From NCBI GenBank assembly GCA_000165345.1, contig CM000432.1, positions 352,001-416,000 on the forward strand: a DNA stretch of 64,000 bases. Direction: 5' to 3'. The notes below the pieces were generated by a model. The model was not told the origin of the DNA. It ran no database searches and saw only the letters and a list, made by a program, of their open reading frames with translations. Shown here piece by piece: positions 3,025-60,629 of the stretch. A program made the position numbers and the translations under genes. How positions within the stretch are numbered: position 1 is the first letter of the stretch; each line of letters starts with the position of its first letter.

Positions 3025-3707
3025 GATCCTTTTCAAACTAGTTTTTGTTCATAATTCACTCTGATAGTAGTAATTATTAGTATTATTATTAAAATGTAAT
3101 TGTCTGTCAGTTCTCGTATATTAAATTGTTACAAACAATAACACAAGTAATAAGACTGATAGTATTTGTACTTAATTGCAATGATGACTCTAATATAATA
3201 TAAATAAATTTAATTAATTAATTTCTTTAAATTCTCTTTAAATACGACGAGTGCAATTTTAAAGATACGTATATTAATCTTTTAAGTTCCTTTTTATCCT
3301 CTCCAAAGAGTAATTTTTGCAAAAAAAAGCAAAGAAATTAAAAAATGTAAAAAGAGCTAATTTTTTTCGTTTTAAAGGAAAGGATTTGTTTTAATGATAA
3401 CAAGTTTTTGAGAAAGAAAATTCTAAAGAATAGAAGCTAAATCTAATTTATAACAATCCACATTAAAATTAATTAATTAAAAACCCCATCTTTTATTTAA
3501 AACTAACCCTAATCTATATAAATTAGACAATTAAGTAGCTTTACCTTTATTTCTATTACTATTTATTTTTTTTAATATTTATTTCCCCACAACTTAATTG
3601 TCCATTAAATTCAAATTGCAGTACCGGCATTCCCGCCATTTCCCGCCAAGTCAAATAATATTATAAGAGACGAGTATTTCAAGGCAAAAAAAAATTATTA
3701 AAAAAAA

Positions 3708-3733
3708 CTGTTGGGGGTATTGGCGCCAAAAAC
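3708..3733. promoter_or_regulatory. G-box plus E2F-like element CTGTTGGGGGTATTGGCGCCAAAAA
   Basis: A GC-rich island in AT-rich intergenic DNA between the divergent ABC transporter and pyrophosphatase genes. Nearby at 3621-3650 is GTACCGGCATTCCCGCCATTTCCCGCCAAG, which holds two tandem TTCCCGCC E2F cores. Confidence 0.5.
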
Positions 3734-4271: not shown

Positions 4272-5423
4272 ATGAGTACTGAATACAGAGTGGGTTTTGC
4301 CTCGAAAGAGGATATTATAGAAAAAAGTACTTATGGAGAATGTGAGGATAGGACAAAAAGCTTGAGCTTCAGTAGTGATGTGAATAGTATTACTTATGAT
4401 GAAGCATCTTCATCAAGTGAGGAATATCCAGAATATAGTTTATTACGCACTCAAAGTTCTTTAGCTCCACCAATTGAGGCTTCTGCAATAGTAGATGTAG
4501 AAGAAGCATGGAAAGCCTTATCTAAAGAATTAGAAGAAAGTCATTCTAAACCAACAATTCGTACTCTTGGGACAGTTTTTGTAACAAGAGAAGAGGTTGG
4601 AACAAAAGATTCAATTGAATATAGATTATTTTATAAGAATGAAGATGGCTATAAGATTTCTCCATGGCATGATGTACCATTATGGTTTTCAGAAACACCT
4701 CTTTTATATAATATGATAATTGAGATTCCAAAATTAACAAATAAAAAATTTGAGATAAATACAAAAGAGGAATATACACCATTATATCAGGATCGAAAGC
4801 TGGAAAGACTTAGAACCTATCCAGGTCCAATTCCTTGGAACTATGGTGCTTTTCCACAAACATGGGAAGATCCAAATAAGAAGGGAGATGAGAATGTTGA
4901 TTTTAGTCATGGTGATAACGATCCACTGGACGCTGTTGAAATTGGAGTTGGACCTCTTCCACGTGGAACAATTATACAGGTAAAAATTTTGGGTTGCCTT
5001 GCTTTAATTGATGATGATGAATTGGATTGGAAAGTTGTATGTATTCGTGTTTGTGACCCACATGCATCACAGCTAAATGATATTACTGATGTTGAGAAAT
5101 ATTTCCCTGGTACTATAGATAGAATTAGGAGATGGTTTGGGCTTTATAAAGCAGTTGAGAATAAAGATGTTGCAAAGGTTAATATGTATGGACATTTTGG
5201 AGAGCCTCAATCAGCAGAGTTTGCTCATTCAGTAATTTTAGAAACTCATCATTCGTACTTACGTCTTATTAGAGGAGAGGCAATGAATTCATCATCATTA
5301 TGGATACCAAAAAGTCTTTCGAATAATGGAGAAACAGAATTGTGTCATACAGTATGTTCCACAAATAGCACTGCTACAGTATCTAGCAATGATATTGGAG
5401 GGCTTTCTGTAAATGATGATTAA
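4272..5423 (+). CDS. Soluble inorganic pyrophosphatase (family I) with N-terminal extension
   Basis: The track ORF 4233-5423 starts at a TTG; the first ATG is at 4272. The core motifs of a eukaryotic PPase are present: ...YNMIIEIPKLTNKKFEI...DNDPLDAVEIG... Confidence 0.9.
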   Translation: MSTEYRVGFASKEDIIEKSTYGECEDRTKSLSFSSDVNSITYDEASSSSEEYPEYSLLRTQSSLAPPIEASAIVDVEEAWKALSKELEESHSKPTIRTLGTVFVTREEVGTKDSIEYRLFYKNEDGYKISPWHDVPLWFSETPLLYNMIIEIPKLTNKKFEINTKEEYTPLYQDRKLERLRTYPGPIPWNYGAFPQTWEDPNKKGDENVDFSHGDNDPLDAVEIGVGPLPRGTIIQVKILGCLALIDDDELDWKVVCIRVCDPHASQLNDITDVEKYFPGTIDRIRRWFGLYKAVENKDVAKVNMYGHFGEPQSAEFAHSVILETHHSYLRLIRGEAMNSSSLWIPKSLSNNGETELCHTVCSTNSTATVSSNDIGGLSVNDD

Positions 5424-6019: not shown

Positions 6020-6044
6020 CTGTGGGGAATTGGCGGGAATTTTG
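6020..6044. promoter_or_regulatory. G-box plus E2F-like element CTGTGGGGAATTGGCGGGAATTTT
   Basis: Same architecture as 3708-3733, about 90 bp upstream of the 6133 gene start. TTGGCGGGAA is a classic E2F core. Confidence 0.5.
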
Positions 6045-6837: not shown

Positions 6838-7026
6838 GCTCAACATTATTCACTTCAACATAAGTAGAATTAATATAATTTATTTTATTAGACTAAATTT
6901 ATGACCACTTTTCTTATTTCTTTCTTTTTTCTGCTAATTCTCTAAATTTCTATACCGGTATTAACATAATAAATGCATGTTTTGCCGCCATACGTGTCAA
7001 AGAAAAAAAGTAAATCAATGGAATAT

Positions 7027-8340
<1,314 letters not shown>

Positions 8341-8584: not shown

Positions 8585-8708
<124 letters not shown>

Positions 8709-8872
8709 CTAAGAAGAATTTAAAATTTAATCCTTTTCACAAATTTATTCAAAATTCTTTATTTTATTTCGAGGTTAATTTTATTAACTAGAAAAAAATT
8801 ATTTATAATATATTACCTTTAATCATTTTATTTAATTTTATTAATTAATATAATTTTATTATTTAATTAATT

Positions 8873-8897
8873 CGGTACCATTTTTGGCGCCAAAACG
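8873..8897. promoter_or_regulatory. Composite CGGTACC plus perfect E2F palindrome TTTTTGGCGCCAAAACG
   Basis: About 70 bp upstream of the TAP42-like start, in the divergent promoter shared with the methyltransferase. A near-identical composite occurs at 25017-25038. Confidence 0.6.
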
Positions 8898-8965
8898 AAT
8901 AATTATGATCACAAAATTAAATTTTTGAAAAAATAAAAAAGAAGAAATATAATGAAATTAATATA

Positions 8966-10105
8966 ATGGACTTCCATCAAATATCTGAGAAGTTTTTAAA
9001 CTTATTGAAAAGATATTATAAAGAAATTTATGACGATTTTTCAGAGTCAGATTTGGATGAGATAATTAAATTGAGGGATGAAATTTTAGATTTTGGGAAT
9101 GAAATAGATTTTTCCAATATAATTTCAAAGAATGAAGAAGTTGAAGATTTGAATACAAATGACATAAAATATTTATTATATTCATATATAAAAGCAGAAA
9201 CAACAAGGTATGTAAGAGATCATAATGTACCAAAAGAACGTGTAGAAAGAAGAAATGATTTAAATGAAATAATGGAATTATATTTACAATTTTTTAATAA
9301 TACCCTTGAAATTAGAAATACAATTTTTAAAGATACCTTGGATTTGGTTGACAATTCCCAAATTAAAAATTTATTTATTGAAGAAAGTGAGAAAAAAATA
9401 ATAAAAGACACCAGGCAAATAAAGATTATGAGATTTAAAAAAATTAAAGAATTAAAATCCTCATTATCGTTATTTTTTAAATCTGGATTTAATTTAACAG
9501 ATGAAAGTGAAAATAGAGATATGATTTTGAAAGCAATTAACTTATTCTTTTTAGAATCTATTGAACAAGTTTCTATGATAAACAACGAAATTAATATATT
9601 AAATTATGCAATTAAAGAAGAATTTACAAAGACTTCTGAAAATGGAGACAAAAGATATGGAGATAATAACATTAATAATATAAATAACAAGATACAAAAA
9701 AATTGTCCTCCATTAAATATAAAACATATTGCACCAAATATTCGCTATTTAACATCCAAAGAAAATACTAGCAATACAGGATTTACATTTAAAGATATTA
9801 ATAATGGAACAGCTGGAGTTGTAATAAATGATAGAGAAAACTTCTATTCAAAAGTGTTTGGGCCAAGCCATACTCTTCCTACAATTTCTATAGCAGAAGC
9901 TGCTGATATGGAACTTAAAGAAGCTTTGGAACAAGAAAAATCTTCCAATATTGCTAGAAAGAATAAAGAAGAGAGGGATCAGATTTTACATGATAAAGAA
10001 TATAGTAAAGAAGAAGAAGAAGATGAACTTAAAGCCAGATCATGGGATGACTGGAAAGATCTAAATCCAAAAGGTCATGGAAATACTATTAGAAATCGTG
10101 GCTAA
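8966..10105 (+). CDS. TAP42/alpha4 (IGBP1)-like PP2A regulatory subunit
   Basis: The C-terminal motif ...RSWDDWKDLNPKGHGNTIRNRG resembles the conserved TAP42/alpha4 C-terminus (..EWDDWKD.NPRG.GN). Overall length and charge fit the family. Confidence 0.7.
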   Translation: MDFHQISEKFLNLLKRYYKEIYDDFSESDLDEIIKLRDEILDFGNEIDFSNIISKNEEVEDLNTNDIKYLLYSYIKAETTRYVRDHNVPKERVERRNDLNEIMELYLQFFNNTLEIRNTIFKDTLDLVDNSQIKNLFIEESEKKIIKDTRQIKIMRFKKIKELKSSLSLFFKSGFNLTDESENRDMILKAINLFFLESIEQVSMINNEINILNYAIKEEFTKTSENGDKRYGDNNINNINNKIQKNCPPLNIKHIAPNIRYLTSKENTSNTGFTFKDINNGTAGVVINDRENFYSKVFGPSHTLPTISIAEAADMELKEALEQEKSSNIARKNKEERDQILHDKEYSKEEEEDELKARSWDDWKDLNPKGHGNTIRNRG

Positions 10106-11224: not shown

Positions 11225-12147
11225 ATTACAACTTGTAATGTACTTGTTACTTTGTTTACAAACAAGACACTATTTCAGGAAACTATTGAAAGATAGATAA
11301 ATGAGAAAACACTACACAACTATTTTACTATTATTATTATTACCATTTTTCTTTTTTTTCCAAGTATTAAATACCCAAACTGAAATTATTCATTATTAAT
11401 TCATTCCACACGTTGGCGCCTAAACTATTTTTCACTGCATCACTGCAATACCGGTAATGTGGGGGGGTACGCGCCAGATATTTAAACATTTTATTTTTTA
11501 ATTCAAAAGAAATTATAAATATCTTAAAACAAAAGAAAAAAAGAATCTCACAAATTAATGATTTCAATTCAATTATATTTTTCTTCTTACTCATTCTTTT
11601 CTCACTGAAACAATATTCTACCCTTCCCAGTTTTTTTCTCTTTCAATAACCCTATCTCTAAAATTCATACTCAGTCGCCACCGTCTCGTCTCCACGGTCA
11701 TCGCTCGACAATGTATAGTGGTTGCAGCGTAAGGCAATACGTAACAACATGAAATGAAATCGTAATCTCGATCTTTGCAACGATATAGTTAGAAAGAAAA
11801 AGAGTTAAATAAGTGATGGGGAATAATAAAAAAGTTGAGAAATAGTATTTTGTATTTAATATTTAATAATAATTAATTAATATTAATAATAATAGTAAAT
11901 TAACTGATAACTTAAACTTTAAAGTTTTTATTCTTGAATAACACACTGGATTAAAGCATATTTTAAACAATTTGAAAACATAGATTTTTAAAAATAGGGC
12001 TTTTTTTTTTTAAAGAGTTATTAATGAAATAAAAGTGAAATATTGGAAAAATTACATTAATATTACAATATAATCATTATAATTCAAATTAAAATTAATT
12101 TAATTATAGGAATTAAATAATACTATGTTTAATGATAAAATCTAATA

Positions 12148-14844
12148 ATGACAGGAAATTCTTTATTGGTACCTCCTAGATCAGCATTTGGATCTAGAGA
12201 AGAATTATGTGCATTTGTATCATATAAAATGAGAAGAGCAACTGAATTATTTACATTTAAATGTTCTTTATATCAAAGAGAACTTAAGTTATATTTACCG
12301 GAACCAGTTCCAAAACATAGAAGATGGATTGATACTTTTGATTCGGAAAGTATCGTTACTATACCAATTAGTAAGATAGAAAAAGATGAAATTGAATTAT
12401 TTAGAAAATATTTCCCAGATAATATGGATTTAGATTCGATTTTTCCTGGTGATCTATTACAAAGATCTTTTAAAAAAAGGATTTCTAGTTTATTAACTTC
12501 TTTAGTTAATAAAATAGTATTTTTACTAGTTTTAAAACATGATACATGGTATGTACATCAAGAAGCTAGGGATGGACTTAGGGAGTATTTGGTTGAAAAG
12601 ATTTGGCCAAGACAACCAAAGTTAAGGTTATTATATAGAGATCATGTTACAACTTTTGTAGATACAAGAATTCGCCATTTTAGAGATTCTGTGGGAAGAT
12701 ATTTTAGAGATCTTCATGCAAATAGTAAGAATGGAGAGATTATTGCGAATTTAATAGTAACTTGTGATTATAAGCAATCAGAATTGGATGATATGATTAA
12801 AAAAGCTTTAGAAGAGCAAAAAGTTATGCTTGAAAATGAAAGAAAGATGGAATATATTGAATCTCCAAATAAAAGTAATATTGAAAACTATAATGGAAAA
12901 TCATCATCACTTTCTTCTCAAATTGAGAAACTTAAAAGTAAAAGTCATAAGATTTACAAAAATGATGATAGATCTTCTTTTAATCATAGAAATATTCTAG
13001 ATTTTAAATATGAACTTGAAGATGAGTATGAAGGTAGGAGTAATAGTATTAGAGAAGAAAATGAAGATTCTCAAATTGAGGAGGATCTAGAATATCATAT
13101 TCAAGATCTTGAGAAAGAATTGGAATTATATGAAGATCTAGAGAATGATATAGAACAAAATTTAGAACAAGAAATTGATGAACAGAATACATATCAAATT
13201 CAGGAGCAAAGACTTAAACAAAGATTGAAACAAAAACAAGTACAAAAAGAAAGATTGAAATCAAAATTAAAGTACGAGAGTGATAATGATAATGAATTTG
13301 AATTGGGACTTGAATGCAATAACAAGGAGGAATTAGACAAGGAAAATGAAAATAAAAGATATGTGAGAGATTATGTTCAATATAATCATGAAATAGGAAA
13401 GAATGTAAAATCTATGAAAAGGATGGATGAAATCCAAAAGGGTAAAAGAATGATTCACTCATCAGAAAGAAGTGATAAAGAATTAGATCAAGAAAGGGTA
13501 TCAAATGGTGATGTTGAGAATGAAAAAAATACAGTTTATCCTCCTCTTAAGAAGAATAACAATAAAAATGATGAGAACTTGAAATATATTCCTCTTAATA
13601 ATATAGGGATATCCAATAGTAGTAATAATTCTCCATCTATGGTTTCAATACCATCAATACCATCAATTCAATCAATTTCTACCAGTCTTACATCAACAAT
13701 GTCATCATCTTCTTCATCCTCTTCCTCATCGTCCTCTTTAGTTTTACCTCCAGCCTTATCTTCTGAATTAAATGTAATTCCAGGTATAGGATATTATCCG
13801 GGCCAAATTCAAATAAACTCTCCAATAGATAAATCATCCATTTATGCTTCACTAATTTATCCTCAGTCAAGTTCAGCTTTCACAAGAGAGAATATAAAAA
13901 ATCTGGAAAGCTCTTCAAACTCTAATATACTGGCAGAAAACAACTCCTCACTTTCTAATATTGTTTATAGAAACATACAGATTGATACAAATAACGTTTC
14001 TTCTAGTGCAAGTTCTCTTTCAAATTCATCTATTTCAAGTTCTTCTCCTGTATCAAAAACTTACTCTAGGTCTGATATTTTAAGCAGTGGATCTATTGGG
14101 AGTGGATCTATGCTAAATAATCACTTTCCAAGTTCTATTTCTGATTCTGGGCTCGCTACAAATCCAGGGTTTGGCCTAGGTTTGGGTATAGGAACAGGAA
14201 TAGGAGCAGGAATTGGAACAGGAATAGGGGCAGGAATTGGCCCAGGGATAGGCCTAGGAATAGGAATGGGGCCAGGCCTAGGAGTGGGTCCAGGATTAGG
14301 AATAGGCATGGGGATGGGAATAGGAATGGGAATGGGAGTTGGCTTAGGATCTGGATCCGGATCTGGATCTGGATCAGATTCGGGCTTGGAAATGAAAATG
14401 GGATCTGAGACTAGTTTGGATTCAAATTCGAATCCAATCTCAAAATCAAGCTCAAATCCAAGTTCAAACTCAAACTTTAATACAAATTCAGTAATATTAA
14501 AGCCCCAAGGATACCATCCAGCTCCAATAACAAACTATCCATATAGCTTTGGATCAATCAAAGACTGTAATTCAATGTTCGGAAACCCATTAATCTATTC
14601 TCAACAACTTAATCCTAATATTCAATCAGCTTTCAATTTCCAAGCTTCTCCAGCCTACTTTATAATTCCAAATTACAACTATGCATTCCAATCCTTCTAT
14701 CCCTCACAAAGTGGATTATTATCTCAATTTAATCCTTCTTTGTTCTCAACTACAAATTTAAACAGTTTTTATCCTATTGATCTAACTAAAGTTAATAGTC
14801 AATCATCTAATATAGATCATATAAACTCTAATAATACAACTTAA
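12148..14844 (+). CDS. Hypothetical protein with structured N-domain, poly-Ser, a (Gly-X)n repeat and a Y/N/Q/F-rich prion-like C-terminus
   Basis: ORF of 898 aa. The GLGIGTGIGAGIGTGIGAGIGPGIG...GSGSGSGS repeat is encoded by a GC-rich island at about 14160-14400. Confidence 0.7.
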   Translation: MTGNSLLVPPRSAFGSREELCAFVSYKMRRATELFTFKCSLYQRELKLYLPEPVPKHRRWIDTFDSESIVTIPISKIEKDEIELFRKYFPDNMDLDSIFPGDLLQRSFKKRISSLLTSLVNKIVFLLVLKHDTWYVHQEARDGLREYLVEKIWPRQPKLRLLYRDHVTTFVDTRIRHFRDSVGRYFRDLHANSKNGEIIANLIVTCDYKQSELDDMIKKALEEQKVMLENERKMEYIESPNKSNIENYNGKSSSLSSQIEKLKSKSHKIYKNDDRSSFNHRNILDFKYELEDEYEGRSNSIREENEDSQIEEDLEYHIQDLEKELELYEDLENDIEQNLEQEIDEQNTYQIQEQRLKQRLKQKQVQKERLKSKLKYESDNDNEFELGLECNNKEELDKENENKRYVRDYVQYNHEIGKNVKSMKRMDEIQKGKRMIHSSERSDKELDQERVSNGDVENEKNTVYPPLKKNNNKNDENLKYIPLNNIGISNSSNNSPSMVSIPSIPSIQSISTSLTSTMSSSSSSSSSSSSLVLPPALSSELNVIPGIGYYPGQIQINSPIDKSSIYASLIYPQSSSAFTRENIKNLESSSNSNILAENNSSLSNIVYRNIQIDTNNVSSSASSLSNSSISSSSPVSKTYSRSDILSSGSIGSGSMLNNHFPSSISDSGLATNPGFGLGLGIGTGIGAGIGTGIGAGIGPGIGLGIGMGPGLGVGPGLGIGMGMGIGMGMGVGLGSGSGSGSGSDSGLEMKMGSETSLDSNSNPISKSSSNPSSNSNFNTNSVILKPQGYHPAPITNYPYSFGSIKDCNSMFGNPLIYSQQLNPNIQSAFNFQASPAYFIIPNYNYAFQSFYPSQSGLLSQFNPSLFSTTNLNSFYPIDLTKVNSQSSNIDHINSNNTT

Positions 14845-19255: not shown

Positions 19256-19758
19256 TAATAACTTAAATCTCTTTTTTTTTAATTCGAGGAAAAAAAAGAG
19301 TTCCAAATTATTATTAAATTACTGAAATTTTATACAATTGAATTCTTTTGAATTTACATATTTTTTAATAATAAAGATATATGAAGAAGAACATACATTA
19401 ATAATATTTAGTATATAACCAAACTAGTGTGTAATCTTTTTTCTTTTTTTTTCAATTTTGATAATCTTCTCTAATTTGTTTTTATATTTAATTTGCATGC
19501 GCTTGTCCACATTGAAATAAAATGTCAACTGCAAGCATTGCCGGTATCAACTTCAATAAATGCAAGTATTTTTTTAGGAAAAAATATAACAAAGGCGCCA
19601 AATAAATAATAAAATGACGTGGCGAGCGCCAAGCAAGGTTTGCAGTTTTATTTTGACATTGAGAAAAAAGATTAAAAAAGAAAAAGAAAGAACAAGGAAA
19701 AAAAATAAGAAGTAACCTTTAAATGAAAAAATAGGTCAAGCTTCAATTTCTCATCAAA

Positions 19759-23150: not shown

Positions 23151-24713
23151 TTAATGAATTAGTTGTAACATAATATTGTATTCTTCTTGTTCTTTCTTAG
23201 TATCTTGAATTAAATTATCAACAAAATTATCCATAAATTGAATATATTTACTTATACTTGAAGGTATTGTATAAGTTGTTGTATTTGATTTAATATCTTT
23301 TTGACAAACATTATTGTCATAATCATTTCTAATACTAGTAAGTGTAGGAACAGTTTTTGGATTAAAATTAAAATTTTGACTTGTATCAATAGGAATACAA
23401 AGTCTACCAGTAGAATGATGAATACAAAAAGGAGCTTTTAAAAGATGTCCAAGATCTTTACTGACATTAATATCTAATCTTGGATAACTATAAGCAAATA
23501 CAATTTCTTTAAGAAGAGTAAGATGGGATTTATCGGATGATTTTTGTAAAGTATTAGAAAGAAAATCCCAGAATTCAAGACATGTAAAATCAGATGTTTT
23601 TTGAATCCAATTTTGAACAGTTTGATATACTTTAGTATCTTCAGAAAGATGATTTAATACTTTTTCAATATGAATAGAATTGTGATCAAAAATTTGTTGG
23701 TTTTCTAGTATTTGATCAAAATATTGCATGCATATATTAAAACATCTATCTATAAATGGATGAGATTTAATCCCATTTTGATTATTTGAAGTCTTTAAAT
23801 TAACTTTCTTTTTTCTATTTTCATTACCAGTAACTAATGTTAAATAATCAATAATAGCAGTTCTTGCTTCAGAAGGTAGAAGTCTGGCTTTAGTATCACA
23901 AACCCAACAATGTACTCCTCTTCTTCCAGAATAAAGCCAAAGTATATGTTTAAAGCCAAAATCTTGTCTTAAAGAAGTATCTATAAGACGAATTGCTACA
24001 GTTACATAAAGCCAACATTTTTCACAAATAGTTTTCTCTTGACAACATGTTCGAATATCATCATAATCATTCATATCAATATCAAAGACTAATTCTCTTT
24101 GTACAGGCTTAAATCCAAGAGGGGAGATTTCTTTTTCAGAAATGGGGATATTGTAGATTGCTCCAATATCAAATTTATGTGGAGTTCTTGCAACAATTTC
24201 TTGTTTTAGTTGATCAATTGTTTTGAAATGTTGCCATCTGAGATATATTTCATCCTGATCAATTTCAGATTTAATAGTCATAGAGAATTCTCTGTTTTGA
24301 ATTAAGTTGTTTTGTCTTGAATTATCTAATTGGATAATAATATAAGAAATAAAGTTAAGTTATGTTTTATTCAATATAATTGAGTTAGGATGATTCATAG
24401 TAATGAATTAAATCATTAATTTATGAATGCATTGTTCCTAGAAATTTTACTTAGCTTACCTCCTATAGTTCCTACATTATATGAAAGCCATTTTCCCAAT
24501 ATATTGAATGGATAAATTTTATCTAAACAAAATGAATTATGAATATTCAAATGATTATACAGCCTTATTTCTCAATTTCTAATTTATATTTTAAGGCTGT
24601 TAATTATATAATTTAAACTTACTATAAAAGAACTTCAGATCAGCTTTGTCAATAAAGCTGTCATCAGCAAATATTAAAGTTTCATCTTTTTCAAAGTTAT
24701 CTTCAAGTACCAT
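23151..24713 (-). CDS. PRI1: DNA primase small (catalytic) subunit, at least 3 exons (exon1 about 24713-24623; exon2 about 24522-24460; exon3 about 24289-23151)
   Basis: The track ORF (23151-24281) carries the catalytic core ...ELVFDIDMNDYDDIRTCC...LWLYSGRRGVHCWVCD. Upstream on the same strand, exon 1 codes MVLEDNFEKDETLIFADDSFIDKADLKFFY followed by GTAAGT, and exon 2 codes NKIYPFNILGKWLSYNVGTIG followed by GTAAGC. These reproduce the conserved primase N-terminus (yeast EYYYKSLYPFKHIFNWLNHS; human LKLYYRRLFPYSQYYRWLNYG). The exon2-exon3 junction is placed at an AG 8 nt before the track ATG and is uncertain. Confidence 0.75.
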
Positions 24714-25016
24714 TTTAATGAATAAATTATTAATTTATTTTTTAATAATTTTGTTATTGTCTTTGATATAAAATAATAATAATTGAATTAGGCGTACAAG
24801 TATCACTTTCTCAAAAATATTCACCTTTTTGTATATTATTTGAAAAAGAGAGATAATGAGAAAGAAAGAGAGAGAGAAATAAAGATCTGTAGAAAAGGGA
24901 AGGGAGATAAATAGATTAAATATTTATTATCGTATTTTTTATTTCCTTCCTTTTTTTTTTTTTTTACCTCACAAATTTGTGAGATCTTAATTAACATTTA
25001 TTTAAACAAAAAATGG

Positions 25017-25038
25017 GTTTGGCGCCAAAACGGGTACC
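25017..25038. promoter_or_regulatory. E2F palindrome TTTGGCGCCAAAACG plus GGTACCG
   Basis: About 300 bp upstream of the corrected primase start and about 170 bp upstream of the 25206 gene. Its reverse complement, CGGTACCCGTTTTGGCGCCAAA, matches 8873-8897. Confidence 0.6.
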
Positions 25039-25205
25039 GAAAATTATTTTGAAATTTTTATATTGGTTATTATTTGCAGGTTAAATTTCCAAGTTAGGTG
25101 AGCAAGTAGATAGGATAAAAAAAAAGAGATCATTTTTGGTTTATTATAGTATAACTAAATAATATAAGAGTGGTGTGTGTAGAGATTTTTGATTAGTTTG
25201 AATAA

Positions 25206-25583
25206 ATGGTAGAAATATATGCATCTGAAAGCTCGGAAGTTGGTAAGCAAGTGAATTGGAATTATATTAATAAGGATAGTCTTTCAAATATAAACGAATT
25301 AGATGTTACGGTATTGAAGGAGATATATAGTGAGATAATTGATTTTGCAAATAAGCTTGCAGAATCGAATAGAATAATGGAGGATTATAAAGATGATGAG
25401 GATATTGTGGATGCAATTGATGAGAATGAGGGAATAATTAAGAGAAAAAAGGAGATAATTGAATTAATTGAGAGTAGATTTAAGCAATTGAATAGGGAAG
25501 ATTTAATAAACGAATCAAAACTTGAAATAGATGGTAAAGATTGCAAAAATAATGAAGATAATAATATGGAAGAATATTTGTAA
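25206..25583 (+). CDS. Hypothetical small acidic protein (125 aa)
   Basis: ORF sharing the E2F-bearing bidirectional promoter with the primase gene. No family recognised. Confidence 0.5.
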   Translation: MVEIYASESSEVGKQVNWNYINKDSLSNINELDVTVLKEIYSEIIDFANKLAESNRIMEDYKDDEDIVDAIDENEGIIKRKKEIIELIESRFKQLNREDLINESKLEIDGKDCKNNEDNNMEEYL

Positions 25584-27623: not shown

Positions 27624-27704
27624 AATTAATTCCCATGTAATTTTTCCCTCCACTAGAATTTATTTAAAAATTAATATATTCAATTTTATTACTATCCCCA
27701 CGCA

Positions 27705-27723
27705 GTGGCGCCAAAAAACCCGC
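27705..27723. promoter_or_regulatory. E2F-like GTGGCGCCAAAAAACCCGC with adjacent C-box ATCCCCACGC
   Basis: Lies between the divergent HN1-like gene and BRX1. Confidence 0.45.
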
Positions 27724-32374: not shown

Positions 32375-32474
32375 NNNNNNNNNNNNNNNNNNNNNNNNNN
32401 NNNNNNNNNNNNNNNNNNNNNNNNNNNNNNNNNNNNNNNNNNNNNNNNNNNNNNNNNNNNNNNNNNNNNNNNNN
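32375..32474. other. Assembly gap (100 N)
   Basis: Run of n characters. The track ORFs 32292-32564 and 32347-32535 are artefacts spanning it. Confidence 0.99.
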
Positions 32475-59409: not shown

Positions 59410-60629
59410 ATTTATGACTTAGATTAAGTTAAGTTTAAATAAACTTTTATTCATAAAATTATTATTCAAATATTTATATTATTAGTGATAATTTTTTATT
59501 CTTAACTATTCTTTTGCTTAATTTATTTTACTGGAATTTCAGGTATTTTTTAAAAACCTTTGAATAATTATTCTGTTTCAGATTATATTTCATAATCAAT
59601 AAGAAAATATTCTTTTTTTACTATTTATATATATTGAATGATATCTTACCACTTTTATATGCCATATCATAATTTAATTAGTATAGGAAATTTTATATGC
59701 CAATAATACAGGAAAAAAAAAAATCAAGTAATTCCATAAAGTAGGTATTAAGGATCCTTTTGTATTTGAATTCAAAGAAAAGTTTCTTGGTTCATATCTT
59801 TAATATAGTCTGAAAATTATATAATAAACATTTATATTAAGTGTGCAATATTGACGCATAAATTTTAATTTAATATTATATATTAAATAAAATAAAAATA
59901 TATTGCTAATTTTATTTCAAATAATACTTCAAAATATTATTCCCATCTTATTCTATTAGCTTTAATTTGGTTGATTTGAGTTAATCAATTTCTTTTAATG
60001 AATCTTGCAAATTCTTCAAAAAGAACAATAATTCTGTTATAAATACAAATCTGTTGATGGAAATTAATTCATTTATTTATTTGAATGAATTAACATTAAA
60101 TTGTTAGTTTTAATTTATTAAATAAACTCAATTTTTATATTTTATTATAAAAATAAAATTGTATTGAAATAATTTTTTTTTTTTCATGCACAAAATTAAT
60201 ATTTTGGAAAATTACGTGTAAATAATTTTAATACCGGCACATCCACATGTAAAAATAATAAATAATACGAGCAAAAAAGAAAAAAAAGAGAAATTAGTAA
60301 AGATAAATTTAAATAAATATTTTGAAATAAACTAATTGAAAACGTTGAAACTTCCTATGTAGGATTTCCTTTTTATTTACTTAATAATCATAATTCTTTT
60401 TTTAAATAAAATACATCTTTTTTGATGGAAATCTGGCCATTACTTTCTTGTAGTATATGGTTAGTAATTAAGGCTTAATTTTGAATCATCATTGTTTCAT
60501 GAAAATAAGTATCATAGTTGTTTAAAAAAATTTATATCAAGTATAAATAGAGAAATCATTTAAAAAATTTTAACTATAAAAATTATAGGTTACAGAATAA
60601 GTAAATGAAGATGATAGTAATATCTGCAA

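Follow-up and report, generated by a model that had tools for sequence, protein, structure and literature searches.

Three unrelated promoters within a 64-kb stretch of Cryptosporidium DNA (referred to here as the window, meaning the whole stretch analyzed) carry a GGTACC-type element 6 nt from an E2F-type core, with the T-tract of the E2F site facing it. The composites occur in excess of expectation, and both halves show purifying conservation in the intestinal clade of the genus. The explanation that we consider probable is a bipartite promoter module, in which an E2F/DP site and an adjoining GGTACC bound by a second factor exert combinatorial control over a subset of E2F promoters. E2F/DP binding of the GGCGCC half would be expected from the literature and from the motif class; a distinct protein may bind GGTACC, and the two may interact. 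Most Cryptosporidium genes have upstream E2F-like sites, and these genes have very different expression profiles (PMC3734150; 10.1101/2025.01.17.633476). Combinatorial control could come from a conserved second element kept at a constant distance from the E2F site, a concrete idea that would be cheap to test. The evidence comes from three promoters in one 64-kb region and from the orthologues of that region.

The window belongs to chromosome 4 of C. parvum, a placement given by the C. hominis locus tags CHM_4g1400 and CHM_4g1430 and by cgd4_1400. The gene order begins with an ABC transporter gene (-), an inorganic pyrophosphatase gene (+; 4272-5423; cgd4_1400, annotated as inorganic diphosphatase), a 235-aa gene (+), a carnosine N-methyltransferase-family gene (-; 7027-8340; Pfam PF07942), a TAP42-like gene (+; 8966-10105; about cgd4_1430; Pfam PF04177, E = 7e-45), and a NELF-A-like gene (+). 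It continues with genes for an 898-aa protein (+), a 141-aa protein (-), V-ATPase subunit a (+), a Tsr1/Bms1-like protein (+), the DNA primase small subunit (-; 23151-24713), a conserved 125-aa protein (+; 25206-25583), and a cis-prenyltransferase (-). The same order is found, in full synteny, in ten other Cryptosporidium lineages. The methyltransferase and TAP42 genes are divergently oriented, as are the primase and 125-aa genes. The pyrophosphatase, TAP42-like, and 125-aa proteins exactly match C. parvum Iowa II proteins, and orthologues of the last have a weak TMA17_helical match. The primase gene has three exons, and its first exon ends at the ATG at 24713; this position is the start codon once two short 5' exons are included, tblastn of the primase protein (P0001) having placed residues 1-37 at 24713-24603, residues 28-52 at 24532-24458, and residues 52-442 at 24326-23154. 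The available part of PMC3734150 assigns cgd4_1400 to expression cluster 46 and cgd4_1390 to cluster 91. Elsewhere, the window contains two tRNA-Pro genes (AGG and TGG anticodons), at 35545-35617 (-) and 36166-36238 (+), and a 100-N assembly gap at 32375-32474, in the upstream region of a hydrolase gene.

The first composite is CGGTACCATTTTTGGCGCCAAAACG, at positions 8873-8897 of the plus strand, and the second is TCGGTACCCGTTTTGGCGCCAAAC, the reverse complement of positions 25017-25040. A preliminary description had drawn attention to both, and both were recovered from the sequence at these positions. They have in common the pattern TCGGTACC-N6-GGCGCC, which can also be written (T)CGGTACC-N6-GGCGCC. 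In composite 1, the CGGTACC partner element (GTAC box) occupies positions 8873-8879 (+) in the promoter of the TAP42-like gene, 6 nt upstream of the E2F core, and the E2F/DP-type site TTTTTGGCGCCAAAA occupies 8881-8895 (no strand assigned; core, 8886-8891), its T-tract facing the GGTACC element. In composite 2, which lies in the divergent promoter of the primase and 125-aa genes, the partner element is at 25033-25039 on the minus strand (GGTACCG on the plus strand), and the E2F/DP-type site TTTGGCGCCAAAA is at 25018-25030 (no strand assigned; core, 25021-25026). In both composites, exactly 6 nt separate GGTACC from GGCGCC. The near-identity and fixed spacing that had been described are thus borne out, with the correction that the alignment needs no indel (ungapped identity, 22/26). 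Both composites had also been described as central in divergent promoters, and this does not hold for composite 1. Composite 2 lies between its two genes, with 307 nt to the primase ATG (24713) and 166 nt to the ATG at 25206. Composite 1 is TAP42 proximal: it lies 74 to 92 nt upstream of the ATG (8966) of TAP42, the nearest downstream gene, with 74 nt between the E2F core and the ATG, versus 532 nt to the methyltransferase ATG.

Thirty-nucleotide blocks flanking the two composites match at 6 to 14 of 30 positions, which is the level of AT-rich background. Since the similarity of the promoters ends at the element, we concluded that composites 1 and 2 are not a duplicated segment. An AAAACG flank on the plus strand is common to both, is not conserved in the TAP42 promoter of other species, and was taken as a coincidence. 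TTTGAA (CHR-like) words downstream of both elements were likewise set aside; by hand estimate, such words are expected about every 570 bp at this composition. Rfam and tRNA scans detected no known RNA at either locus.

The GC content is 27% for the window overall and 22% for its non-coding DNA. CGGTACC was found twice on the two strands of non-coding window DNA, versus 0.11 expected. These are the only two exact CGGTACC composites in the 64-kb window. GGTACC was enriched in non-coding DNA (4 observed versus 0.49 expected) and not in coding DNA (2 versus 2.5). GGCGCC was found 10 times in the 22 kb of non-coding DNA, versus 0.04 expected, and twice in coding DNA, versus 0.45 expected; its non-coding over-representation was also seen in other intestinal species. 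The expectation for GGTACC-N6-GGCGCC is approximately 2e-6. The remaining two non-coding GGTACC sequences (30104 and 33155) are far from any E2F core. A GGTACC at 12168-12173 lies 20 nt inside the 898-aa open reading frame (start, 12148), and the same offset is kept in C. bovis, C. ubiquitum, C. canis, and the species assembled from Logan data; it reads TTG GTA CCT (Leu-Val-Pro), so its conservation is probably coding rather than regulatory.

A third composite, cAGTACC-ggcatt-CCCGCC, is located at 3619-3637 (+) in the intergenic region between the ABC transporter and pyrophosphatase genes, upstream of the latter. Its gap is also 6 nt, and a second TTTCCCGCC follows at 3639-3647. The C. felis orthologue, AGGTACC-cagttt-CCCGCC, again has a gap of 6 nt, and the C. 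ubiquitum orthologue is degenerate (GGTAAC-N7-CCCGCT). Among the 23 non-coding E2F-like cores of the window, 3 have GTACC at a gap of exactly 6. When the flanks were shuffled (n = 20,000), no shuffle reached three at any one gap, and the probability that any gap reaches two was 0.006. In a spacing histogram for 11 sequences (the window and loci L001 to L010), GTACC occurred seven times at gap 6 and at most twice at any other gap. An ungapped alignment of 11 composites had TAC, TT, and CGCC as invariant columns. Since the spacer terminates in a T-run in every gap-6 instance, the asymmetric E2F T-tract always faces GGTACC. The three window promoters thus have the same spacing and orientation, as expected of a constrained spacing (n = 3, from one 64-kb region). 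GGTACC-type composites are present in about 3 of roughly 24 window promoters, at distances of about 75, 307, and 634 nt from the start codons.

Conservation of the partner element in the TAP42 promoter extends to all eight intestinal-clade lineages, in which it is exact or one mismatch off. It reads CGGTACC in C. parvum, C. ubiquitum, and the Logan-assembled species, aGGTACCg in chipmunk genotype I, CGATACC in C. canis, and CGGTACA in C. felis, in each case with a gap of 6 nt; in C. bovis and C. ryanae, GGTACC lies 15 and 16 nt from a CCCGCC core. In a five-species alignment of this promoter, CG-TAC and TTTTTGGCGCC are invariant and form a conserved island, and the flanks average 58% column identity. 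The TAP42 proteins of the compared species are only 47 to 83% identical, yet both composites are conserved. A hexamer scan of 12 orthologous intergenic regions placed GGTACC among the strongest non-E2F footprints in both promoters: it was found in four of six other species for TAP42 (0.19 expected) and in three of five for primase (0.17 expected), and GGCGCC was found in four of five for primase (0.05 expected). GGTACC is therefore retained above the level set by composition, between flanks that have diverged, as a phylogenetic footprint should be.

For the primase promoter, we compared anchored extracts and shorter alignments, because whole-intergenic MAFFT alignment misplaced the motif. The partner element was present in five of six lineages. 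C. ubiquitum has an identical TCGGTACCCGTTTTGGCGCC, and its 21.5-kb orthologous locus contains no GGTACC besides this one. In C. canis, the copy in place has decayed to CGATACT, and an intact CGGTACC lies another 22 bp upstream, which corresponds to the location of CCGGTACC in C. bovis and of CGATACC in C. ryanae; judged from these sequences, the C. canis pattern looks like binding-site turnover under selection. No recognizable partner site was found in the C. felis primase promoter, and the partner element was absent from the gastric species (C. serpentis and C. andersoni). GGTACC is retained 15 to 33 nt from the E2F site in three species: at 15 to 16 and about 33 nt in C. bovis and C. ryanae, and at 28 nt in C. 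canis. With spacing this variable, direct contact between the proteins cannot be a general requirement. A metagenome-wide scan for CGGTACCNNTTTTGGCGCC returned at least 120 stretches, among which there were no additional Cryptosporidium loci; these were on contigs of 35 to 71% GC, none as AT-rich as the Cryptosporidium sequences compared here (window, 27% GC), and were taken as chance matches.

The gastric loci (C. serpentis L003, 18.3 kb; C. andersoni L132, 21.5 kb) are almost without canonical E2F cores. The C. serpentis locus has no GGCGCC, GGCGGG, or CCCGCC, and that of C. andersoni has two GGCGCC and two GGCGGG. GGCGCC occurs 12 times in the window and one to eight times in each intestinal-clade locus (four to eight in C. 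ubiquitum, C. canis, C. felis, and the Logan species; two to three in C. bovis and C. ryanae). What the gastric primase promoters have in common instead is GYGGCGGTAAA. These counts suggest that the usage of E2F sites may differ between the intestinal and gastric clades.

Several other features were noted in these promoters and their vicinity. A TGATCA(C/T) element at 8906-8911, about 15 to 25 nt downstream of the E2F core of the TAP42 promoter, is a third conserved element of this promoter, retained by C. ubiquitum, C. canis, C. felis, chipmunk genotype I, and the Logan species. A mini upstream open reading frame at 8953-8968 (ATG AAA TTA ATA TAA) has a stop codon that overlaps the TAP42 start codon (TAATG), and ATAATGAAATT, at the upstream ATG, is conserved in all five aligned species; the frame may serve translational control or reflect an error in the annotated start. 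Upstream of the composite, the methyltransferase/TAP42 intergenic region contains a (TA)n/(TATATA) microsatellite in at least five species (8620-8710 in the window, 9680-9745 in L007, 1820-1865 in L131, 1-15 in L008, and 1-25 in L010). Between the E2F site and primase, a perfect palindrome, CTCACAAATTTGTGAG, occupies positions 24968-24983. C. ubiquitum and C. canis retain its arms, CACA...TGTGAGG, and five of five species have ACCTCA; the palindrome may be a CACACA-type AP2 site. The NELF-A/898-aa intergenic region contains a GC-rich block, ccgtctcgtctccacggtcatcgctcgac, at 11680-11712, several hexamers of which are found in six of six other species, and which could represent an exon missing from the annotation, an RNA, or a strong regulatory element.

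A second family of elements, TACCGGYA, was found five times in the whole window (3622, 6953, 11449, 19539, and 60232), versus 0.66 expected. The preliminary description had listed six TACCGG-type cores in intergenic DNA; those at 3621, 6953, 11449, 19541, and 60231 stand, and the one at 44990-44998, which reads GTTACCCAG, does not. Across the species, TACCGG is about 4-fold enriched in non-coding DNA and depleted in coding DNA. TACCGGTA occurs at 11449-11456, between a G-box/E2F-like cluster and the GGCGCC at 11415, and at 6953-6960, where C. ubiquitum has CCGGTACT at the corresponding place; TGCCGGTA occurs at 19539-19546, in the V-ATPase/Tsr1 intergenic region, and TACCGGCA, found in the window scan, at 60232-60239 (no strand assigned to any of these). 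CCGGTA is kept in five of six species at the 11449 element, in the NELF-A/898-aa region. In the V-ATPase/Tsr1 region, CCGGTA is kept in four of six species and ATACCG in five of six. The spacing of TACCGGYA to E2F sites is variable. The two motif types are exchanged at some orthologous positions: C. bovis has GGTACCGG in the primase promoter, C. felis has CCGGTACA in the TAP42 promoter, and upstream of pyrophosphatase C. parvum has GTACCGG versus GGTACC in C. felis. In view of these exchanges, a single factor with a CGGTA(C) core may read both GGTACC and TACCGGYA.

If the composite is a bipartite module, its first half, TTTT-GGCGCC-(AAA), would be a standard Cryptosporidium E2F/DP-type site, with E2F/DP predicted to bind TTTTGGCGCC. 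The second half, (Y)CGGTACC, has a palindromic GGTACC core that abuts the T-tract side, 6 nt from core to core and 12 bp from center to center, and would be the site of a second sequence-specific DNA-binding protein, probably a dimer. Since the two sites touch, the partner would sit beside E2F/DP, either helping or competing, and would distinguish a subset of E2F promoters among the many that have such sites. We more tentatively raise a broader possibility, that GGTACC-N6-E2F is a genus-level composite element defining a sub-regulon of intestinal E2F promoters. The partner would then be restricted to certain lineages, being absent or diverged in gastric species, and could be, for example, a Myb, C2H2, or ApiAP2 protein; it would dock by the E2F subunit, in the manner of the CHR-binding LIN54 in animal DREAM complexes. 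Were this so, it would offer a first concrete explanation of how many expression profiles can arise when most genes share one upstream E2F motif.

The main rival explanation, which we regard as unlikely, is that two independent elements lie side by side without functional coupling. GGTACC would then be a genuine site, possibly for the TACCGGYA factor, that shares a short nucleosome-free promoter core with the E2F site, and the 6-nt spacing would be historical rather than mechanistic. Independence would fit the departures from that spacing in C. bovis, C. ryanae, and C. canis, the conservation of TACCGGYA near E2F sites at variable distances, the swapping of motif types at orthologous positions, and the fact that G-boxes, too, abut E2F cores. 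Against it stand an identical gap and T-tract orientation in three unrelated promoters, the failure of the shuffles to reach three instances at one gap, and the retention of the TAP42-promoter gap in six lineages despite diverging flanks.

Known E2F-DP structures contact only a site of roughly 12 bp. This counts against the proposal that GGTACC belongs to an extended site for a particular E2F/DP pair, such that an extra DNA-contacting region of one subunit, for example, would select among the two E2F and two DP proteins with no third protein involved. Fixed spacing and orientation relative to the T-tract would suit such a site, and C. parvum encodes several E2F and DP proteins, but the retention of GGTACC at 15 to 33 nt from the core fits an autonomous binding site better, and we consider an extended site improbable. 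It is similarly improbable that GGTACC is a core-promoter, start-site, or DNA-structural feature rather than the site of a regulatory factor. The location 74 to 92 nt upstream of the TAP42 ATG is plausible for a start-site region, and conserved TGATCA and palindromic elements lie just downstream; however, only about 3 of roughly 24 window promoters have the composite, their distances to the ATG differ widely (about 75, 307, and 634 nt), and a palindromic hexamer is, as we infer, typical of a dimeric binding site. Chance or local duplication of a segment of roughly 26 bp, the alternatives raised by the preliminary description, would fit the presence of only two exact CGGTACC composites in the window but can be dismissed as extremely improbable, given a composite expectation near 2e-6, flanks at background identity, a third instance in which both the flanks and the E2F core differ, and, across species, conservation of both composites where the TAP42 proteins are just 47 to 83% identical.

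The E2F half of the composite is an already known motif. Bankier et al. (2003) are said to have first noted a Cryptosporidium E2F-like motif, in the first description of over-represented non-coding words. The C. parvum E2F motif, TGGCGCCA or DTTGSCGCCH, is the most over-represented upstream motif (PMC3734150); Oberstaller et al. (2013) list DTTGSCGCCH as motif 3 and TTTGGCGGGAAV as motif 4 (PMC3734150). [quoted passage not shown] The E2F motif dominates sporozoite ATAC-seq peaks, many of them at bidirectional promoters, and C. parvum peaks typically have one E2F motif (10.1101/2025.01.17.633476). According to the literature, C. parvum has two E2F and two DP proteins (cgd1_1560, cgd6_1430, cgd7_3650, and cgd8_1850). 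TTTTTGGCGCCAAAA and TTTGGCGCCAAAA match the consensus TTTSSCGC / [A/T][C/G]GCGC[G/C][A/T], and the identification of the palindromic half as an E2F/DP site, which had been made before, agrees with the published C. parvum motif (PMC3734150) at the level of a motif match. The further suggestion that E2F upstream of primase fits cell-cycle control of replication genes is weak. E2F-like motifs occur in most promoters of the window, as they do upstream of those 163 clusters, and a site this close to universal reveals little about replication-specific control when it turns up ahead of primase. G-box elements (TGGGG/CCCCAC, a published AP2-bound motif) were found 2 to 5 nt from E2F cores at four window sites: ttGGGGGtattGGCGCC (3712-3727), tgTGGGGaattGGCGGG (6022-6037), tGTGGGGGGGtaCGCGCC (11459-11475), and CCCCACgcagtGGCGCC (27696-27712). 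An immediate one-sided partner is thus common at window E2F sites, and GGTACC is not the sole kind.

What is new is GGTACC, which, together with the conserved TACCGGYA, is absent from the C. parvum motif catalogues and lists examined. Oberstaller et al. (2013, Table 1; PMC3734150) catalogued 25 motifs over-represented upstream of C. parvum genes, none of which matches GGTACC, and the available part of the text and supplement of that paper contains neither GTAC nor GGTAC. There was no match to GGTACC in the table of a 2025 review, in the ATAC-seq preprint (10.1101/2025.01.17.633476), or in the study of Mullapudi (2007). The supplement of the last includes one MEME pattern beginning cggtACC, from a nucleotide-metabolism subset, which is non-significant (E = 5500) and at most a weak hint. 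A full-text search for GGTACC or TACCGG together with Cryptosporidium returned no title on a regulatory motif, and the matches are probably cloning sites or primers. The earlier statement that the CGGTACC partner could not be assigned to a motif holds for the published C. parvum lists examined, and the element is real and conserved. An AP2 protein had been named as a candidate factor; the published C. parvum AP2 protein-binding-microarray motifs include no GGTACC or GTAC, and none of the published AP2 binding motifs backs this suggestion.

Comparison with known systems places the composite closest to elements that it resembles in part. The Cryptosporidium E2F-like motif is matched exactly by the TTTTGGCGCCAAA half, which is enriched in non-coding DNA and conserved, as published (PMC3734150); the published descriptions, however, treat the E2F site alone and mention neither a GGTACC neighbor nor a fixed spacing. 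The published C. parvum ApiAP2 motifs (TGCAT, CACACA/GTGTGT, the G-box, GCGTGCA, and GGTGCACC, the last for cgd4_3820) are, like GGTACC, short and often palindromic. The nearest of them, GGTGCACC, has the same outer GGT...ACC but carries two additional central bases. Motifs with a GTAC core include the plant and algal SBP-box site and the Plasmodium AP2-G site, GnGTAC. Both have this core in common with GGTACC, but their flanks do not fit: SBP sites favor CGTAC, and the AP2-G motif requires a G two positions before GTAC. In animals, CDE/CHR promoters have an E2F-like CDE with a CHR, TTYGAA, 4 nt away, and are bound by DREAM via E2F4/DP and LIN54. As in the composite described here, an E2F-type site and a second short element lie at a fixed, very short distance and set apart a subset of E2F targets. 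The partner here, however, is GGTACC rather than TTYGAA, and the spacer is 6 nt rather than 4. OrthoMCL yielded no C. parvum orthologues of pRB or of most other components of the E2F/pRB/Myb complex (PMC3734150). The resemblance of the GGTACC-N6-E2F composite to CDE/CHR is one of analogy, not of membership.
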